Position numbers and translations under genes: made by a program
Part shown: in pieces, positions 17,864-59,824 of the stretch
Numbering within the stretch: position 1 is the stretch's first letter
Layout: each line of letters opens with the position of its first letter
Origin: Pseudomonadota bacterium
Lineage (GTDB): Bacteria > Bdellovibrionota > Bdellovibrionia > Bdellovibrionales > Bdellovibrionaceae
DNA: 64,000 nucleotides
Assembly: GCA_041178425.1 (NCBI GenBank)
Contig: JBEGVH010000009.1
Span: 96,001-160,000 of the forward strand
Direction of reading: 5' to 3'
The notes under the pieces: model-generated
Databases searched by the model: none
Told to the model about the DNA's origin: nothing
The model's input: only the letters and a program-made list of their open reading frames with translations

Positions 17864-18631
17864 CTACGCAGAGTCATTGATCGGACTTTCACCATCGAAC
17901 TCAACCGCTGGAACTTGATGGGCAACTTGGCTTGCTATCTTTTTAATTTTAGCAACAACCTCTAAGATCCAAATCGCATCGCCGATAAAGGCCTTTTTGT
18001 ACATCTGCGAATTGCTGGAGCTATACTCACCGAGGTAGGTGCGAAAGAGTTTGCGATACTTTACTTGTCGTTCCCTCAAGGTTCTCCCCAGCCTCAGATA
18101 CCATTCGGGAGGAGTCAGGAGATGAGTGAACTTTGTTCGCTTGCCGTAGGCGTAAAAGCCATAACTTGAGTAAACATAGTCTTTGAGATTTTCGAGAGTG
18201 CGAACCCCCGCACGAATTGGGTTCGCCTCAACATAGAATTGAACGCGCATTTCGTGTTCGGGATTTTGAATCAGAGGAGTTTTAGGGCGCCCCTCGGCAA
18301 CTTTACCACTCCTGCGGTTCGAACGATTATACCAAATACCAAATAAGGCATGCTGTTGCCTCATCAAACGGGAGAGATTGGGGGAACCATCGGAGTATCC
18401 CACCACCTGATGGAAATGATTGCTCATCGCACAGTAGGCATTAATGACACACTTTTCTTTGAGCTTAGTGGTTTGAAACGATGGTTTGTGTTCGAGGCCG
18501 CGCTCGAGACACTCAAAGTACATGTCTTTGAAACGATTAGATTGGAGGTAGTACTCCTTATTATGGCAGCGCCAGTAGAGGTGAACTTTGCCGGTGATGG
18601 GATATAGCTGTTGGGAACGATTGATTCTCAT
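17864..18631 (-). mobile_element. REP-associated tyrosine transposase (RAYT; IS200/IS605-superfamily Y1 HUH enzyme)
   Basis: HLYWRCHN, AYCAMSNHFH (HUH), YNRSNRRSG, YVEANPIRAG (catalytic Tyr), YVYSSY. No tnpB adjacent. Confidence 0.88.
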
Positions 18632-18742
18632 GGAGGACACAGAGAAGCAAATTGCGTGAAAAGGTGGGAATCAACATAGGGGAAAATAGTGACCGAAAGG
18701 ACAGGTGGGACGACTGATATCGGATGTTTAGAACGGATGTCG

Positions 18743-50135: not shown

Positions 50136-51383
50136 ATGAATGACGTGTTTTGGAAAACCAAATTTCCTGAGGTTTATCAGTCAGTCCAGGCTTTACCTGA
50201 GGCCCAAGCCCGAGATCCCCAGGAATGGACTCAGTTGGCCATTGAGAGCAGTCTTTTAAGCTCGGAGGACTACCTCCCGGTAGCTCAAAATTATTATTCC
50301 CTAGCGGTTTTAAATGATCGTTTTTTCACAGAACAATTTACGACACTGGTCTATGAAAAATACAAATCTGAGTTCAATTGGAGCTCAACGGCAGTGCCTT
50401 TTGCTGAATGGGATGGCGTTGTTTTTGTCGCCTGCCTAGATCCCCACCAGGTTCCCTCGAATCTAGAAACCGTTTACCGGCCGATATTAGCCTCCTACGA
50501 AGGCCTTACATGGGCCTGGAATCGATTGCACCAACAGCAAACAGACCTCGAAGAAACAAAGTTCGCTGAAACGGAACGCACTTCTCCCGCTCCGAAAACG
50601 CCACCTCCGCCTCCGCCGGCAGCAGATTCCTTAGCCACATTTACACCGCCACCAACCGTATCATCTGGGATCCAATCAACACAAAATCTGTTTGAACTCG
50701 TTGATACTCCAAGTGAGGCAACCTCCGAAGAGGAATTGCTCAGCTCGGAACCGCAGCCAGAGGCAGAATTTGAAATGCCTGAAGGGCTTTCGTTTGGACT
50801 TGCACCAGCACCAAGCACACCACCGCCTCCTCCACCTCAGGCTCCCCCGGCACCACCCAAGCGGCAAGTGGCACCACCGCCTTCGCCTAGAAATGATTTG
50901 AGAGATTTTGAAAGAACGGCGGCCCAGCAATTAAATATTAAAATCAATCCTGATCAGGCCATCGAAGAAGAACTCATGCTATGTTTTGCAAAAGCTTTTC
51001 AAAACTACAGAAACTTAATGATTCTGAAAGTACATGGTGATCAAGCAATTCCTTTTCGGTGGGATCCCAGCTACCGACCACCAAAGTCTGTAGAGCCCGT
51101 TAACCTTAGTAAACCAAGCGTATTTAGAATTGTATCAAAAACTCAAAAACCTTTTCACGGACCCGTCGTCCTCAACGACACCAATAAGGCTTTTTTTGCG
51201 GCCTGGTTCGGCGGCCTTCAACCGGGATTCCTAACGATTATTCCCCTCTTTTTTGATGGAGAAATGGCAGGAATGATTTTAGCGGCAGCCGATCAAATGC
51301 CTGACTCTAAGGGAAGCCTGAATTTGATGCAAACAACAGCGCAAAAGGTGGAGTCTACTTTTGGTGCGAGAATAGCCGTTTAA
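50136..51383 (+). CDS. hypothetical protein: GspE/PilB N-terminal-like domain, Pro-rich linker, GAF-like C-terminal domain
   Basis: AVPFAEWDGVVFVACLDP (T2SSE_N-like); poly-Pro linker; SVFRIV..KPFHGP...IIPLFFDGEMAGMILA (GAF-like). Confidence 0.55.
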   Translation: MNDVFWKTKFPEVYQSVQALPEAQARDPQEWTQLAIESSLLSSEDYLPVAQNYYSLAVLNDRFFTEQFTTLVYEKYKSEFNWSSTAVPFAEWDGVVFVACLDPHQVPSNLETVYRPILASYEGLTWAWNRLHQQQTDLEETKFAETERTSPAPKTPPPPPPAADSLATFTPPPTVSSGIQSTQNLFELVDTPSEATSEEELLSSEPQPEAEFEMPEGLSFGLAPAPSTPPPPPPQAPPAPPKRQVAPPPSPRNDLRDFERTAAQQLNIKINPDQAIEEELMLCFAKAFQNYRNLMILKVHGDQAIPFRWDPSYRPPKSVEPVNLSKPSVFRIVSKTQKPFHGPVVLNDTNKAFFAAWFGGLQPGFLTIIPLFFDGEMAGMILAAADQMPDSKGSLNLMQTTAQKVESTFGARIAV

Positions 51384-53743: not shown

Positions 53744-53770
53744 TAAAGTTTTTAACTTTTCGTCCGAAAA
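53744..53770 (+). promoter_or_regulatory. putative sigma28 (FliA) promoter
   Basis: TAAAGTTT-N11-TCCGAAAA versus consensus TAAAGTTT-N11-GCCGATAA; ends 19 nt before ATG 53790. Confidence 0.65.
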
Positions 53771-53789
53771 AGAGACTAAGGGAAAATAT

Positions 53790-55208
53790 ATGAGCTTAAA
53801 CTACCAGCATGAAAAAAAGAAACATCAGGAAAACTTTTGGACTTCCTATGCTGACCTATACAGTACCCTCTTTACTATCTTTCTTTTTATTTACGTTGCT
53901 TCGACCCTTAAGCAAGGCACTAGAACTCTCGAACAGGTTCAAGATAAAAAATATTTAGTAAATCAAATTGAAGATCTAAAGCAGCAATTAAAGGTCTACG
54001 AAGCACTCAAAGACAACTACATGAAAAAAGAAGCGTCAGGAGAAGAAAGCGCTCTTTACGATGAACTCATAGGCAAGCTGGATCTATTGCAAGAAGAGGC
54101 TAAAAACGAAAAAGAAGCCCTTCGTCGAAAAGCGATGGAAAACGAGCGCAAAGAAAAAGCACTCAATAAATATCAACAGCTCATTCGGAATATGATCAAC
54201 TCGAATGTCATCGCTAAAACAAAAATTCAATATCGCAATGAATTAATATCAGAAAAAGAGACTTTGATAGAAAAGCAAAACACAGAAATCGCCACCTTAG
54301 ACGCCGACGTTGCTGCTAAACGAACTGAACTAGCCAGCAAAGAGCAACAGCTCAACCAAGTAAGCGAAGAGCTACGGCAAAAAGAACTTAAACTCACTGA
54401 AGCCAAGGGGCAATACGACCTTTCTCTCGCGGACGCTCGTCAGAAATTTCAAAACGAACTTAATTCGGCTCAAAATAGTTTTAACGAAGCCATAAACAAA
54501 GAACGACTGTCTGGAGCTGAAAGGGCTGCAAGAGAAAAATCGTTCCGCGACCAGATGAGCGCAAGAGAGAAAGCCTACGAAGGACAATTGGCCGCTCTTA
54601 AATCGAAATACGATAGCACTCAAGGTGAACTCCGAAAAGCCATCGATCAGATTAACACCCGAAAGAAACTCACTGACCAGATCAAAAATCGATTTGCTAA
54701 AAATGGAATTCAGATTGAAATAGATGAAAAATCTGGCGAGGTCGTGCTCGACTTTAAAGATAGCTATTTCGAAACTGGCAAAGCTATTTTAAAGACCGAA
54801 ATGATTGAAAACCTCAGACGATTTATACCCCTGTACACAGATGGGCTTTTCGAAGACGATGCCACCGCTAATAAAATTGCTTCTGTTGAAATCATCGGCT
54901 TTGCCTCACCTACCTACAAGGGAAAATACGTAGATCCATCAAGCCTAGAGGCGTCTAACCGTGATGCCGTCAATTACAATCTCGATTTAAGTTATGCGAG
55001 AGCCAAGGCTATATTTACGTATGTTGCCAATACCGATAAATTGCAGTTCAAAAACCAACAGCGGTTCATGGGCTTGGTAAAAGTCACAGGACGAAGTTTT
55101 CTCGCTCAAAAAACAGATGTTAATGGAGCGGCAGTGGATGATTTTTGCAAGGTCAATGACTGCAAAAAAGAGCAAAAGGTAATTATTAAATTTAATTTAA
55201 AGGATTAA
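53790..55208 (+). CDS. MotB/ZorB-like protein: TM with conserved Asp, long coiled coil, OmpA-like domain
   Basis: ENFWTSYADLYSTLFTIFLFIYV; ~260 aa of E/K/Q-rich coil; YFETGKAILK...VEIIGFAS...NLDLSYARAKAI. Confidence 0.8.
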   Translation: MSLNYQHEKKKHQENFWTSYADLYSTLFTIFLFIYVASTLKQGTRTLEQVQDKKYLVNQIEDLKQQLKVYEALKDNYMKKEASGEESALYDELIGKLDLLQEEAKNEKEALRRKAMENERKEKALNKYQQLIRNMINSNVIAKTKIQYRNELISEKETLIEKQNTEIATLDADVAAKRTELASKEQQLNQVSEELRQKELKLTEAKGQYDLSLADARQKFQNELNSAQNSFNEAINKERLSGAERAAREKSFRDQMSAREKAYEGQLAALKSKYDSTQGELRKAIDQINTRKKLTDQIKNRFAKNGIQIEIDEKSGEVVLDFKDSYFETGKAILKTEMIENLRRFIPLYTDGLFEDDATANKIASVEIIGFASPTYKGKYVDPSSLEASNRDAVNYNLDLSYARAKAIFTYVANTDKLQFKNQQRFMGLVKVTGRSFLAQKTDVNGAAVDDFCKVNDCKKEQKVIIKFNLKD

Positions 55209-55229
55209 TTCTCAATTAGGAGGAAGAAA

Positions 55230-56183
55230 ATGACAGCTGGAGTTGGCGCGGTGACGCCGGAATTAAGTCTCCTCGATATTTTGTTTAAGCTGATGTCGAT
55301 GGGCCTAATGGGATTCATGCTCACTGTTTTTATTGTCGGAGCTATTGCTCGCATCCTCATTTTCTACACCGTTAAAAGACACGAATGGTTCACCATTGAA
55401 TTTCTAAAGCGAATTCGATCGGCGATGGATGCAAGAAAAGATGACACTCCTTTTGGGTCTTTCTATGGCAATACACGCAAACTCTTAGAGAGAACTTACT
55501 ATGAGGTTTTCAAAGTTCGCTCGGTGATGAAACGTCGCCGTCCCGATCTCCTTATGGATCCAATGGATCGTTGGTTCCTTATTAAACAAGGCAGTGCGTG
55601 GCTCATCCATGAAGTCTTGCGTAACATTCGTTTTTTAAGACCTGGGATGCATCCAAAAATGCATGAACTGACGAGATCAATTATTCAGGCGAACCCCGCA
55701 TACAACCGAATTTTTGGAATTTTTCCTGTGGGGACCCTTACTGAAGTTACCAATCTCCTGCCTGGCCTTTTTGTTATCGGAGGTATTTTGGGAACCTTCC
55801 TCGGAATCAAAAATGCACTCCCTGAATTAGCAGCCCTGGATCTCGAAAATCCTGACGCAACAAAAACAGCAATCGCAAGTTTTCTGACAGCAATTACCTT
55901 TAAGATGAACTCTTCGATCTTTGGTATTCTTTACTCCGTCGCTTTCTCATTATTGAATTCATGGCTCGCCCCCGAGCGCGTTTTTGTCAACACGGTTGAC
56001 CTCTTTGAAAGCGGTTTAGATACCATTTGGAATCTTTCTGATCACACCGTCGGTCATTCAGCTCAACCTGATTTTGATGAAAACAAAGATCCAATGGAAG
56101 CTCTGGCTTCTGAATTTTTGAGGGATGAAATCGATCGGCAATCGGGAATTTTAACAAATAGGGGCCTTAATAAAGCTTCTTAA
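55230..56183 (+). CDS. MotA/ZorA-like ion channel subunit
   Basis: Three TM regions; LPGLFVIGGILGTFLGI and MNSSIFGILYSVAFSLL. AGGAGG RBS. Confidence 0.75.
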   Translation: MTAGVGAVTPELSLLDILFKLMSMGLMGFMLTVFIVGAIARILIFYTVKRHEWFTIEFLKRIRSAMDARKDDTPFGSFYGNTRKLLERTYYEVFKVRSVMKRRRPDLLMDPMDRWFLIKQGSAWLIHEVLRNIRFLRPGMHPKMHELTRSIIQANPAYNRIFGIFPVGTLTEVTNLLPGLFVIGGILGTFLGIKNALPELAALDLENPDATKTAIASFLTAITFKMNSSIFGILYSVAFSLLNSWLAPERVFVNTVDLFESGLDTIWNLSDHTVGHSAQPDFDENKDPMEALASEFLRDEIDRQSGILTNRGLNKAS

Positions 56184-56215
56184 GCGGAAGCAAAAATTAG
56201 GTTATTGAGGAATGT

Positions 56216-58813
56216 ATGTTTAAAAGAAATCCACAATTCATCGTATACCTTAACAGTGATGGCAACCTACCGCCAATTTCTATCCACGAAAAAAAATTCG
56301 TGATTGGCAGAAAGCCTACTCATCCGGTCTCAATTCCTGATGCCAGCATTAGTAGGGATCACTTGGAAGTCATCGTTCAAGATGGCCAAATTTATGTCAT
56401 GGATCTTGAAACCTCCAATGGCACAAGAGTTGATGGAATACTCATTCCCGGAAATATTCCCACCCCGTATAGACCGGGCCAGAGCCTCTATCTAGGACAC
56501 TCAAATGTCTCAATAACCATCGAACTTTTCGAGGACCAAAAAGGAAAAACTAAATCGGCCCCAACTACACCAAGGGTCGCGGTCACCAACACAAGCCAAA
56601 CATTTGCTCAAGAGAAAAAAATCTATTCTCCACAGCCGGCAATGGTCACTCACCATCACCACGAAGAGGATGATCAGTCTCCTTCTGTTGCTCAATCGTC
56701 GAAAAAACCCGATGTAATCAAACAAAACACAAGAGGAATACAAACGGTCCAAACATCTCAATCAGCCCATCGAAATATTCCTCATGCTCCAGCCAACGAA
56801 CCGTCGTCGGCAGCCCCTCATCACAACGAAGCGACGTCCCCCTTGGGTGCTCAGAAGCCCTCTCAAGAACTTAAATCACAGGAGCTACCTCCCAACGATC
56901 TAGAAGCGCTTAAGCAGTCGGTTGCCGTCCTCATGGTTCAAATCGATCACCTTAAGGCACAGGTCATCAAACATCAAACCGACAAGATCGCGACCGAAGC
57001 CCTCTACAAGCAAGAGAGCACGCGCCTCGAAAAAATTCAAGAAGAGCTCCGAAGCGAAGAACACAAACAAAGAACAATTCGCCAAGACCTTGAAATCAAA
57101 CAAAACTTACTAAAAGAAACTGAAGAAAAGCATAAAATGCTAGTTCTTTCGAATCAGTCGCTGGTTGAAGACACAAAAGCGGCTCTCGAAAAAGCACGCT
57201 CCCGCGAAGTAGAGTTGAATGTTCTCATTGAACAAGCACGGAAAGACCATCAAGAAGCCATTGACTTTGCAAAAAATCATAGAGCCGATGCCGAATCTTA
57301 TTCAACGCAGATGCGCACCGATGCCGAGCGCTATTCGAATCAGCTAAGAACAGAAGCTGAGGTTTATGCCAAAGACACTCGCGAAGAAGCCGAGAAGTAC
57401 TCTAAGAGTGTTCGAGATGAAGCTGAAACCTATTCGAAAACCACCAGAGAAGAGGCTGATGAATGGGCCACAAGACTTCGCAGTTCAACTGACGCTGAGG
57501 TTCGCAAAAAGATTGATTCTCTCCAAGAAGAAACCAACAAGATTTTTGCTGAACGTGAACAAACCTACTTAGAGCTCAAGGCGCGACAAGAGGCTCAGCT
57601 TGAGGATATTAAAAAAGCCGAATCCACAAAGATTAAGAACGTTCAAAATCTTGATGCTACATTTAAAAAACGCACCGAAGAGCTCGAAGAAACTTATCGC
57701 ACAAGAAAAGATCAAGTAGAACGGGATTTCTATGAAAAACGTGAGATCTTGGAGCGTGAACTCTCGCAACGACGCACAAGTATGGAACGGGAGCTACTCG
57801 AAAGACGTGAAGCACTTGAAAAAGAGGCCAACGATCGACGAAGCCAAATTGAGAGCGATGCTCAAGAACTTAGAAGCATTAGGGATCGCGAGTACAAAGA
57901 ACTGAAAACCCAACAGGATGCTTACTTGATTGATGTGAGAACACGAGAAGAAGACAGACTTAAAGGAATCGTTGACGAATCAAGAAAGGTCATTAAAGAG
58001 CAATTTAGTATTAAAAATGAAAACATCAACAAGGCTTTCAATGACTATTTTGAAGAACAAATTAAATTAGCCCCCACAGAGTCTCGAGAGCAGCTACCGA
58101 AACTCCAACAGGATTTGCAGAAAATTCTCCGCGAAGCTCTGACCGAGGAATTTAGCGGCGAAGACAAGCAAATTAAACAGTTGTTTGAGTATGATCCAAA
58201 ACATCAGAAAAAACATAAAACTTTCTGGAAGCGCTTTGCAGTAACCGCCGCCATTATCGTCACGGTGGGTGGCTACCTTGTCAATAATCCGAAACAGGTC
58301 ACTGAGAGCGCCATCACTTTTTCAGAAACGGTAAACACCATCGACCAGGAGAACAAAAAAGTACAAGCGGAGTACCTCAATAAAATTAAAGAGCAAAGTG
58401 TTTATCACCCCGACCAGACTCCTAGTTTTAAGGATACCTACACAGACAACGTTCTCTTCACCAGTCGCTACGTGGAGTTTGAAAATGATGAGCAGTACAA
58501 ATCCCAATGGATTGTGGCAATCAAAGAGTACCTTACTCAAGAAGCCAAGATTCAGGACGATAAAGCAGATGAGCTTATTTCTAAAGAAGGAGCGTTGATT
58601 AACTCGCTTTCTGGTGAAGTTGCCACCATCGATGCTCGACAAGCCGACAAAGGAATCGCTCGAATGCGCGAAATCGAAATACCTTTCATAGTTCTCTTGA
58701 CCCAATCAATGAACGATGAGATCAGAAAGGGCTATCAGGAGAAGAAACAAGCTTTTTATGAGCGCTTCATTAATGATCCCGCTAAATTTCGAGGTCCCGC
58801 CCAGAGCAAATAA
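56216..58813 (+). CDS. FHA domain + long coiled coil + TM + C-terminal helical domain protein
   Basis: FHA motifs VIGR, SISRDH, DLETSNGT; 11-residue repeats; TM FAVTAAIIVTVGGYLV near aa 675. Confidence 0.85.
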   Translation: MFKRNPQFIVYLNSDGNLPPISIHEKKFVIGRKPTHPVSIPDASISRDHLEVIVQDGQIYVMDLETSNGTRVDGILIPGNIPTPYRPGQSLYLGHSNVSITIELFEDQKGKTKSAPTTPRVAVTNTSQTFAQEKKIYSPQPAMVTHHHHEEDDQSPSVAQSSKKPDVIKQNTRGIQTVQTSQSAHRNIPHAPANEPSSAAPHHNEATSPLGAQKPSQELKSQELPPNDLEALKQSVAVLMVQIDHLKAQVIKHQTDKIATEALYKQESTRLEKIQEELRSEEHKQRTIRQDLEIKQNLLKETEEKHKMLVLSNQSLVEDTKAALEKARSREVELNVLIEQARKDHQEAIDFAKNHRADAESYSTQMRTDAERYSNQLRTEAEVYAKDTREEAEKYSKSVRDEAETYSKTTREEADEWATRLRSSTDAEVRKKIDSLQEETNKIFAEREQTYLELKARQEAQLEDIKKAESTKIKNVQNLDATFKKRTEELEETYRTRKDQVERDFYEKREILERELSQRRTSMERELLERREALEKEANDRRSQIESDAQELRSIRDREYKELKTQQDAYLIDVRTREEDRLKGIVDESRKVIKEQFSIKNENINKAFNDYFEEQIKLAPTESREQLPKLQQDLQKILREALTEEFSGEDKQIKQLFEYDPKHQKKHKTFWKRFAVTAAIIVTVGGYLVNNPKQVTESAITFSETVNTIDQENKKVQAEYLNKIKEQSVYHPDQTPSFKDTYTDNVLFTSRYVEFENDEQYKSQWIVAIKEYLTQEAKIQDDKADELISKEGALINSLSGEVATIDARQADKGIARMREIEIPFIVLLTQSMNDEIRKGYQEKKQAFYERFINDPAKFRGPAQSK

Positions 58814-58846: not shown

Positions 58847-59824
58847 ATGAAGGCTTTTGATATCAGCAAAAGCCTTCTTGTTTCTTTTAGCCCTTTTGAA
58901 GGGCGATGTTTCTTTCTTAGCTTTGAGAATTACGAAGACGATTTGAAATCCGAGCTAAATCTAAATAAAAAGTGTAAAATCATCAAAACGATGGGTCGAC
59001 TTTTTCTTGTCGAAGGATGGATCCGCCCGGCACTATGGGCTCAATCCCATTGGCTTCATCCCGAAGTAACTAACATAGCTTCTATCGGCGAAGCTGCCAA
59101 ATTTTTGAAATCAACTTTTCCGCGCTGGTCGCTCTTTTCTGTTGATGCCCATCGGCGATCCCAGTTAATTTGGGAGAAGCTCCCTAGAGTCACCTCTCCA
59201 CAAATAGAGTTTTTGCAGGATTGGAATCGTAAAGATCATGGAGCCTGGACACTCGAAGATTCCAACACTCTCTGGTATAGCACCCACGTGATTCCTGCCC
59301 TTCCCATCGGAGAATTTAACTTTAAAGAGGATAAGGTGAACCCTCCATCGCGGGCCTACAATAAACTCTGGGAGCTATTCACCCTCCATGGATACAGACC
59401 AAACAAAGGGGAAAAGGTCCTCGATATGGGAAGTTGCCCCGGTGGTTGGACTTGGGTTCTTCAAGGAGTTGGTTGCCAAGTGATAAGCGTCGACAAAGCT
59501 CCAATCGATCCTAAAATCGAATCTCTTCCGCGAGTAAGGTACCTAAAAAGAGACGCTTTTGCCCTGGATCCAAAAGATGTCGGTCCGATTGACTGTTTTT
59601 TTTCAGACATTATTTGTTATCCAGAAAAGCTCCTAGAACTTGTTCAAAAATGGAGACTCTCTGGCTTCTGCCATCGGTTTGTCTGCACCATCAAATTCCG
59701 GGGAAAAACTGATTTCGAGACTCTGCAAAAATTTGCGGATATTCCAAGCTCCAAACTCATTCATCTCTCGGTCAACAAACACGAAGTCACTTGGATTTGT
59801 GGTTTTGACAATAAAGAAAACTAG
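58847..59824 (+). CDS. FtsJ-like RNA ribose methyltransferase (RlmM-like)
   Basis: PPSRAYNKLWE, DMGSCPGGWT, SDI, TIKF, HEVT (K-D-K-E type). Confidence 0.8.
   Translation: MKAFDISKSLLVSFSPFEGRCFFLSFENYEDDLKSELNLNKKCKIIKTMGRLFLVEGWIRPALWAQSHWLHPEVTNIASIGEAAKFLKSTFPRWSLFSVDAHRRSQLIWEKLPRVTSPQIEFLQDWNRKDHGAWTLEDSNTLWYSTHVIPALPIGEFNFKEDKVNPPSRAYNKLWELFTLHGYRPNKGEKVLDMGSCPGGWTWVLQGVGCQVISVDKAPIDPKIESLPRVRYLKRDAFALDPKDVGPIDCFFSDIICYPEKLLELVQKWRLSGFCHRFVCTIKFRGKTDFETLQKFADIPSSKLIHLSVNKHEVTWICGFDNKEN

Follow-up and report, generated by a model that had tools for sequence, protein, structure and literature searches.

The 5:2 ion motors characterised so far power flagella or gliding, transport at the outer membrane, constriction of the envelope, or defence against phage. 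What does such a motor do when it is encoded apart from the genes of all these systems? The question is raised by three genes at 53744-58813 of a 64,000-nucleotide (nt) stretch of DNA (referred to as the window), which belongs to contig JBEGVH010000009.1 of a Bdellovibrionaceae genome (assembly GCA_041178425.1). An initial annotation described them as an orphan Zorya/MotAB-like operon, in which a MotB/ZorB-like gene (B) and a MotA/ZorA-like gene (A) are joined by a gene for a membrane-anchored FHA protein (F). We tentatively read the operon, at a little under an even chance, as a ZorAB-type proton motor repurposed as an envelope-strain sensor or transducer for the free-swimming attack phase, with F replacing the tail of ZorA.

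A ZorAB-related pair in a three-gene operon

The genes lie on the forward strand in the order B (53790-55208, 472 amino acids (aa), ZorB-like), A (55230-56183, 317 aa, ZorA-like core) and F (56216-58813, 865 aa, FHA protein), separated by gaps of 21 nt and 32 nt. The layout given in the initial annotation agrees with these coordinates, and the two motifs it had pointed out, FWTSYADL and ILGTFLG, are both present. Profile scans of flanking open reading frames (ORFs) in the window turned up none of the flagellar, tonB/tolA, glt or zorC/D/E genes, as it had also stated. Each of the three genes is single-copy in the source genome, which is scored 100% complete. The closest named loci come from Pseudobdellovibrionaceae and Bdellovibrionales metagenome-assembled genomes, at 68-80% identity. 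Besides the operon, the source genome contains nine Pfam MotA/ExbB genes. They include those of three motAB pairs, of a tolQRA-like set, of exbBD-like pairs and of AglRQS-like sets, one of which adjoins gltG. The trio is therefore an addition to the genome's ordinary set of motors.

Among family models, A matches ZorA best and B matches ZorB best, in both cases far below the curated cut-offs (NCBIfam ZorA_4, 38.3 against 500 bits; ZorB1, 30.9 against 400 bits). NCBIfam ZorB1 and ZorB2 both match B weakly, the PADLOC ZorB1 profile matches it at E 1.9e-31, and its best PDB sequence match is ZorB (8VVI). A weak MotB_plug match (E 4e-5) is also seen in B, with no ExbD family match in the PADLOC and Pfam profile scans. 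In A, the Pfam scan gave no MotA_ExbB match, against E 3.5e-29 for the exbB of the window with the same model, and profile scans gave no MotA family match. A profile of 58 A homologues found seven sequences in the PDB, of which the six best are ZorA chains. When the A family was aligned with the window's own ExbB, only 18 columns could be matched (hhalign probability 9.6%).

Hydropathy and an AlphaFold model (predicted local distance difference test score (pLDDT) 81) indicate three hydrophobic segments or transmembrane helices in A. With this model, Foldseek placed ZorA first (E 5e-3 to 2e-2). The VIA structural search gave ZorA 8QYH at Z 11.3 (root-mean-square deviation 4.0, 201 aligned), which is in the range that helical bundles reach by chance, with ExbB close behind at Z 9.7. 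Language-model features also place ZorAB as the closest solved relatives. For a helical protein, fold scores of this size are modest, and the affinity of A to the Zor proteins therefore rests on several weak lines in agreement. Taken together, profile searches, PDB profile matches and the fold of A all favour ZorA/ZorB over ExbBD, as the initial annotation had proposed, and A and B are predicted on these comparisons to form a membrane core homologous to ZorA/ZorB.

Conserved motor residues and a long wall tether

Conservation was assessed over 94 family loci, namely the window, four named loci and 89 regions hand-picked from the match list. In A, residues T189, S229 and P178 are kept in 94, 93 and 93 of these loci. 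They align with T147, S184 and P136 of ZorA, residues tied to function (PMC11946911). The acids E87, E92, D106 and D113 of A are kept in 70-78 of the 94 loci, with a spacing that differs from the E-x-x-E of the ZorA Ca2+ site (E86/E89).

The transmembrane helix of B (53853-53909, from hydropathy and alignment) has the ion-conducting Asp22 at its start. This residue is kept in 83 of 83 aligned homologues and corresponds by alignment to ZorB Asp26 (numbering of PMC11946911). At the other end of B, an OmpA-like peptidoglycan-binding domain (54651-55205) carries Y396-N397-L400-R404 and the pair Cys453/Cys458. N397, L400 and R404 are invariant in the 94 loci, Y396 is kept in 84 and the cysteine pair in 93. 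The spacing of the four residues is that of Y151/N152/L155/R159 in ZorB (PMC11946911). The peptidoglycan-binding motif of ZorB is thus retained in B, and wall binding is predicted.

A periplasmic stalk (53922-54659) separates the helix from this domain. It comprises 246 residues here, is free of proline and consists of E, K, Q or R at 40%; from this composition and SMC-like profile matches, we consider it probably a coiled coil. Across 87 measurable homologues the stalk varies from 243 to 1492 residues. At a helix rise of 0.15 nm per residue, it would span 36-224 nm if straight. Since this is at least four times the membrane-to-wall gap of E. coli, the stalk would lie along the periplasm or fold back.

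A short A subunit and an FHA protein that go together

A ends 70 residues after its third transmembrane helix, and over the 94 loci the median is 72 and the maximum 202. Within this short end lies an acidic motif, FDENKDPMEALA (56073-56108, forward strand), which is confined to the FHA-protein clade. At a threshold of at least 12 bits the motif is found in 52 of 60 loci with F, in none of 14 loci with a stand-alone cyclic nucleotide (cNMP)-binding gene in the third position, and in one of 20 with neither. The genome of that one locus (G177; L043 and C1:1196384-1196968) has F about 0.9 Mb from B-A, and all three genes and the A motif are kept. We notice that in one lineage (L073, L082, L090, L094) the FHA domain of F no longer has its canonical residues and the C-terminal motif of A is changed too. 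L091 has a degenerate FHA domain and an unchanged A motif, so the link between the two is imperfect.

F consists of an FHA domain, a low-complexity Pro-rich linker, about 435 residues of probable cytoplasmic coil, a transmembrane helix and a periplasmic helical domain. The FHA domain (56300-56497; Pfam E 2e-10) contains R32, S46, H49 and N68, which we take to be the phosphothreonine-binding residues; all four are kept in 49 of 60 F homologues. Two genes with Ser/Thr-kinase domains lie above the Pfam cut-off in the source genome. A stand-alone FHA protein of 114 aa, 45% identical to the FHA domain of F, is encoded elsewhere in it (L141:6135-6476), convergent with a patatin-like phospholipase gene.

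Residues 674-690 form the one hydrophobic helix of F (58235-58285). With six K/R before it and one after, the N terminus is predicted to be inside. Among the 60 homologues, hydropathy of this helix is at least 1.5 in 54, and an excess of K/R on the N-terminal side is likewise seen in 54. The part before the helix ranges from 284 to 1459 residues, and one homologue has a weak DivIVA match.

The conserved periplasmic domain (58286-58810), delimited by alignments, contains a YTDNVLYT motif and matches no recognised family. Its model (pLDDT 93) is all-helical, without any strand of three or more residues. Profile scans of F gave no GltG, AgmX C-terminal or TonB-C-type match, although the genome's own GltG matches the GltG model at 213 bits and its TolA-like proteins match too. 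The GltG-like transducer role that the initial annotation gave to the FHA protein is therefore not supported. For the C-terminal 215 residues, Foldseek gave nothing trustworthy (best E 0.87), the best VIA row stood at Z 7.5 and globin-like ones at Z 5.6-7.1, which does not reach the trust level, and the Atlas search gave no usable match; a new fold is not implied by these blanks. A complex prediction with A 14-306, the FHA domain and the C-terminal 303 residues of F, and without B, scored 0.00 with a mark of 0.32, and its controls were unfolded; it speaks neither for nor against a contact.

Linkage and distribution in Bdellovibrionota

The A profile matches 133 of 301 genomes of the phylum Bdellovibrionota, 120 of them at E <1e-29, and 32 of 37 genomes of the family to which the window belongs, mostly with one copy. 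B is directly upstream of A in all 94 loci. A is followed by F in 60 of them, by the cNMP-binding gene in 14 and by neither in 20; one of these 20 has a cNMP gene on the opposite strand. Among these 301 genomes, 84 gave a match for the periplasmic domain of F. They include every one of the 80 genomes whose A match is strongest, 2 of the 17 whose A match is middling and two without an A match; the 23 genomes of a distant clade gave none. These results bear out the proposal of a distinct member of the 5:2 superfamily with a conserved trio. Four near-complete genomes of the family (G023, G141, G207, G210; three of them single-contig) have no match for B, A or F, and the fifth genome without an A match holds only a B fragment at a contig edge.

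The flanking genes are not conserved, as the largest cluster takes in 8 of 782 flanking proteins. The only recurring flank is a divergent upstream gene shared by seven loci of family f21 with B-A and no third gene (L081, L084, L088, L127, L129, L130, L132); it has ankyrin-like matches in L081.

In a quick tree, from which one locus with an incompletely readable A was left out, the F-bearing loci form one clade (Shimodaira-Hasegawa-like approximate likelihood-ratio support 97); outgroup joins are long-branched and unreliable. The A protein of L072 (G049), from family f19, nests among f1 sequences in this tree, for which horizontal transfer is a possible explanation. Three genomes (G111, G179, G266) each hold two or three paralogous copies.

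In the distant clade (L099-L113, e.g. L107:7912-13188), B reaches 1758 aa. The cNMP protein of this clade has 146-164 aa, is co-directional with the operon in 14 of 16 loci, and a FliA-type site is often present. We had considered this small third gene as a homologue of the F periplasmic domain and rejected it, as it proved to be a cNMP-binding domain.

In a wider search of 1.8 billion representatives, the matches listed (150 of 742) are mostly fragments or A-like proteins close to 300 aa in length, with 626 aa as the maximum. The two best Atlas clusters are from Bdellovibrionota; searches aimed at other phyla were not made. The operon family was not found in a plasmid search. On a viral contig (L142:5554-7618, also L143), a ZorA-like protein of 383 aa and a ZorB-like protein of 314 aa are encoded between two serine recombinase genes, without an effector gene beside them; their relation to the operon family is remote. 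In other orphan pairs of the phylum (L115, L116, L117, L118), the A-like protein is 563+ to 755 aa in length, its C-terminal part being long, and the neighbouring gene encodes either 187-198 aa or a ZorB-like protein of 297-337 aa. Those scanned matched no Pfam family, and no Zorya effector was seen among the L117 neighbours scanned. These long A-like matches were considered as Zorya loci and are not clearly so.

A FliA-type promoter site and the attack phase

A FliA (sigma28)-type promoter lies directly upstream of B at 53744-53769 of the forward strand, with TAAAG (53744-48), a 15-nt spacer and CCGAAA (53764-69). The FliA consensus of Bdellovibrio bacteriovorus is TTAAG-N16-CCGATA (PMC3627812). 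A rule built on it was applied to the 65-110 nt before the B membrane motif, a range chosen after a first look at the data. Ten of the 94 loci were dropped (eight with B not placed by the motif rule, two with short upstream DNA). The site was found in 40 of 84 loci, against 2.1 +/- 1.4 (maximum 6) in 200 shuffles. It therefore occurs beyond chance, and the sigma28-like promoter named in the initial annotation recurs in related loci. By group, it is present in 24 of 56 loci with F, 7 of 13 with the cNMP gene and 9 of 15 with neither. A crude genome-wide count of FliA-like sites upstream of ORFs gave 55 versus 52 of 2615, with no enrichment and a background of about 2%. The source genome has a fliA gene above its cut-off.

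In B. bacteriovorus, the likely orthologous operon is Bd1167-Bd1168-Bd1169 of strain HD100 (EP01_RS15535-15545 in 109J). This putative assignment is drawn from protein lengths, intergenic gaps, the kinds of gene upstream and the names given by NCBI. The three proteins have 522, 301 and 794 aa, and their genes are 12 and 0 nt apart (PMC3627812). One of our loci (L039) has an A of 301 aa and an F of 794 aa with these same gaps, and its three upstream gene types are those of the 109J table. The genes are annotated as 'microtubule binding protein', 'hypothetical' and 'large Ala/Glu-rich protein' (PMC3627812), and some B homologues are likewise named 'microtubule-binding protein' by NCBI. Bd1167 has also been called crescentin-like and possibly cytoskeletal (PMC2797640). 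We found no description of the operon as a motor in the literature searched, and Bd1167-1169 were likewise not recognised there as one. In a survey of MotAB relatives, Zorya-like proteins were omitted from the tree (PMC12505986).

Bd1167-1169 are reported as one attack-phase-specific operon, induced 26-, 55- and 36-fold, and FliA is proposed to control most attack-phase genes of B. bacteriovorus, beyond the flagellar ones (PMC3627812). Transposon sequencing of 109J recovered insertions in all three genes, with fitness of 1.5-2.0 under four prey conditions, namely planktonic and biofilm V. cholerae and E. coli (PMC6561027). Predation genes score below 0.1 in that screen, and the fitness of the operon resembles that of many neighbouring genes (PMC6561027). 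The screen used a pooled host-independent strain, and subtle roles could escape it (PMC6561027). Attack-phase expression and the lack of a predation defect reach the present operon by way of the likely orthology and these papers.

What the operon may do

Homology, the conserved catalytic and wall-binding residues, linkage, co-occurrence and promoter conservation come directly from our comparisons. By homology, A and B would assemble as a 5:2 complex. ZorAB itself has been proposed to sense envelope perturbation (PMC11946911; PMC11890865). We speculate that B grips the wall through the OmpA-like domain at the end of its stalk. Deformation of the envelope would load this tether, protons would pass Asp22, and A would turn. 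The short acidic C-terminal motif of A would then couple to F, directly or via a partner. The cytoplasmic coil and FHA tip of F could stand in for the ZorA tail, linking to a phosphothreonine partner, and in the distant clade a cNMP-binding protein would occupy the third position. The intact motor residues, the co-occurrence of F and A, the A motif tracking F and the absences of the whole operon are consistent with this sensor. So are the third gene, a signal-binding module (FHA or cNMP) in both clades having one, the two Ser/Thr-kinase-domain genes, the FliA-type sites in all three groups, the attack-phase induction and the unconserved flanks.

Several observations weigh against it. An adjacent third gene is missing from 20 of 94 loci, and 11 of 60 FHA domains are without one or more canonical residues, some perhaps through wrong start calls. 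The membrane-proximal coil of F has no sequence conservation. The F loci form one clade, and therefore the co-occurrence of F and the A motif counts as one evolutionary gain. The fold score of A, within reach of chance for helical bundles and closely followed by ExbB, belongs here too. As for expression, the mapped HD100 start site was scored without a FliA site (PMC3627812), the array drop on prey entry is only mild (0.58-0.81) and expression persists in host-independent growth (PMC2797640). Both the stimulus and the output of the sensor are inferred.

The long rods of B and F invite a mechanical alternative, in which F anchors the A ring to a cytoplasmic scaffold and proton flow twists the wall-bound B dimer, tensioning the stalk. 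Such a brace or winch would stiffen or reshape the small attack-phase cell instead of signalling. Most of B and of F is taken up by helical rods whose considerable length varies widely (243-1492 and 284-1459 residues), a crescentin-like, possibly cytoskeletal label has been attached to Bd1167, periplasmic shape polymers occur in Vibrio (PMC8938487), and one F homologue has the weak DivIVA match. We nevertheless consider it unlikely: two clades have a ligand-binding module as their third gene, the cNMP protein has neither membrane anchor nor coil, the curvature of B. bacteriovorus is explained by the hydrolase Bd1075 (PMC8938487), and insertions carried no fitness cost (PMC6561027). Kinship with ZorAB might instead point to an anti-phage system of the Zorya kind for the phage-exposed attack phase, acting by membrane depolarisation or through remote effectors that F or the cNMP protein would recruit. 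An accessory defence would suit both the neutral fitness seen when phage was not part of the screen (PMC6561027) and the loss of the whole operon in some genomes, and the cNMP domain resembles that of Pycsar effectors, though as a generic domain match. This explanation is rather doubtful to us, as A has no long tail, whose truncation abolishes Zorya defence (PMC11946911), and the operon, usually with one copy per genome, occurs in 32 of the 37 genomes of the family and has a developmental promoter. No ZorC/D/E/F/G match was found in the 150 immediate neighbours scanned out of 168, the plasmid search did not find the family, and the ZorAB-like pairs on viral contigs are only remotely related.

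The initial annotation had also raised motility and prey invasion. A force generator for gliding or invasion, with F as GltG-like transducer, would fit the attack-phase expression of the orthologues (PMC3627812), the GltG-like layout of FHA domain and membrane helix, and the spread of the operon across a predator-rich phylum. The dispensability of the operon for predation argues against a prey-invasion motor, since insertions in all three likely orthologues were neutral whether the prey was V. cholerae or E. coli, planktonic or in biofilm, in a paper that finds gliding and pilus genes among attachment-defective mutants (PMC6561027). In addition, the genome has its own AglRQS-like sets and GltG, F has no GltG or TonB-C-type match, and no outer-membrane partner gene is conserved nearby; the idea is improbable. 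Least credible of all is an auxiliary flagellar stator co-regulated by FliA, to which the promoter and the MotB-like OmpA wall anchor might point. A has three helices and is closer to ZorA, ExbB and TolQ than to MotA, three ordinary motAB pairs are already encoded in the genome, and FliA is proposed for most attack-phase genes rather than flagellar ones only (PMC3627812).

The envelope-strain sensor, in line with the envelope sensing that the initial annotation named among its options, thus remains our preferred reading. More broadly, the operon may represent a rotary motor of the Zorya type that serves development and not defence in predators, with a wall tether of 36 to >200 nm and a swappable arm replacing the ZorA tail; this is possible, though well short of an even chance. 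The tether would sense or generate envelope tension, and the arm would be gated by phosphothreonine or, in the other clade, by cyclic nucleotide. If true, this would add a new functional class to the 5:2 motors and might hint at a non-defence origin of Zorya. The mappable catalytic residues of Zorya are kept while architecture and regulation differ, which suggests that ZorAB-like motors also serve ordinary cell biology. The analysis re-annotates an attack-phase-induced operon of B. bacteriovorus now labelled 'microtubule binding' or 'crescentin-like', in an organism for which a transposon library and genetic tools exist. With the third position empty, filled by an FHA arm or filled by a cNMP protein, the family also offers a natural experiment on how a motor relays its signal.

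Surroundings of the operon

Just after F, an 11-bp hairpin at 58849-58877, terminator-like on both strands, overlaps the start of an rlmM-like gene (58847-59824) and may mark the end of the operon transcript. The rlmM-like gene was considered as an operon member and rejected, because flanks are unconserved beyond close relatives. Upstream, a 415-aa protein (50136-51383) combines an N terminus that weakly resembles MshEN (E 0.027) with a Pro-rich linker and a C-terminal domain not assigned to a family. A 258-aa ORF with an HFH motif on the reverse strand (17864-18640) is flanked on either side by long ORF-free stretches; presumably it resembles the REP (repetitive extragenic palindrome)-associated tyrosine transposases.

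Comparison with Zorya and other 5:2 motors

The structures of ZorA5B2 (8QYD/8QYH from E. coli, 8VVN from Shewanella, 8VVI from Sulfuricurvum) share with the operon a three-helix A with a membrane-proximal cytoplasmic domain. Common to both are also the kink proline and the filter threonine and serine of A, and the motor aspartate, OmpA-like domain, Y-N-L-R motif and conserved cysteines of B; as in 8VVI, GxxS replaces the usual GHTD in B. The differences are considerable. A has no long tail, whereas E. coli ZorA has 729 aa and tail truncations abolish its defence (PMC11946911; PMC11890865). B bears its stalk of 243-1492 residues, whereas in ZorB no linker separates the wall-binding domain from the membrane helix, and the span is about 9 nm (PMC11946911). 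B precedes A, and the third gene encodes a membrane-anchored FHA or cNMP-binding protein, with no adjacent nuclease or helicase effector genes. ZorC/D/E/F/G models matched none of the 150 immediate neighbours of related loci that were scanned, out of 168 eligible ones; neighbours of >700 aa or with unread bases were not taken in. Genome-wide, PF15611 and NF041789 (ZorC) gave no match, though the controls gave no signal either, and ZorD and ZorE were not searched for. The operon is mostly single-copy, near-core in one family and has a FliA-type promoter. As the tail, a linker-free B and adjacent effector genes were each looked for and not found, the operon is not a Zorya member; it is related to ZorAB by homology and lies outside Zorya types I-II.

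MotAB and PomAB share the motor aspartate, an OmpA-like anchor on a linker and the FliA-type promoter. They differ in the four-helix square fold of A (PMC12505986), against three helices here, in a far shorter linker of B, and in their flagellar neighbours, which the operon lacks. AglRQS-GltG/GltJ, ExbBD-TonB and TolQR-TolA resemble the operon in a three-helix A and a single-pass partner encoded alongside, and GltG, like F, has its FHA domain at the N terminus. In contrast to ExbD, TolR and AglS, which lack it (PMC12505986), B carries an OmpA-like domain. Unlike GltG, TonB and TolA, F has its long part in the cytoplasm and an all-helical periplasmic domain without a TonB-C-type match.

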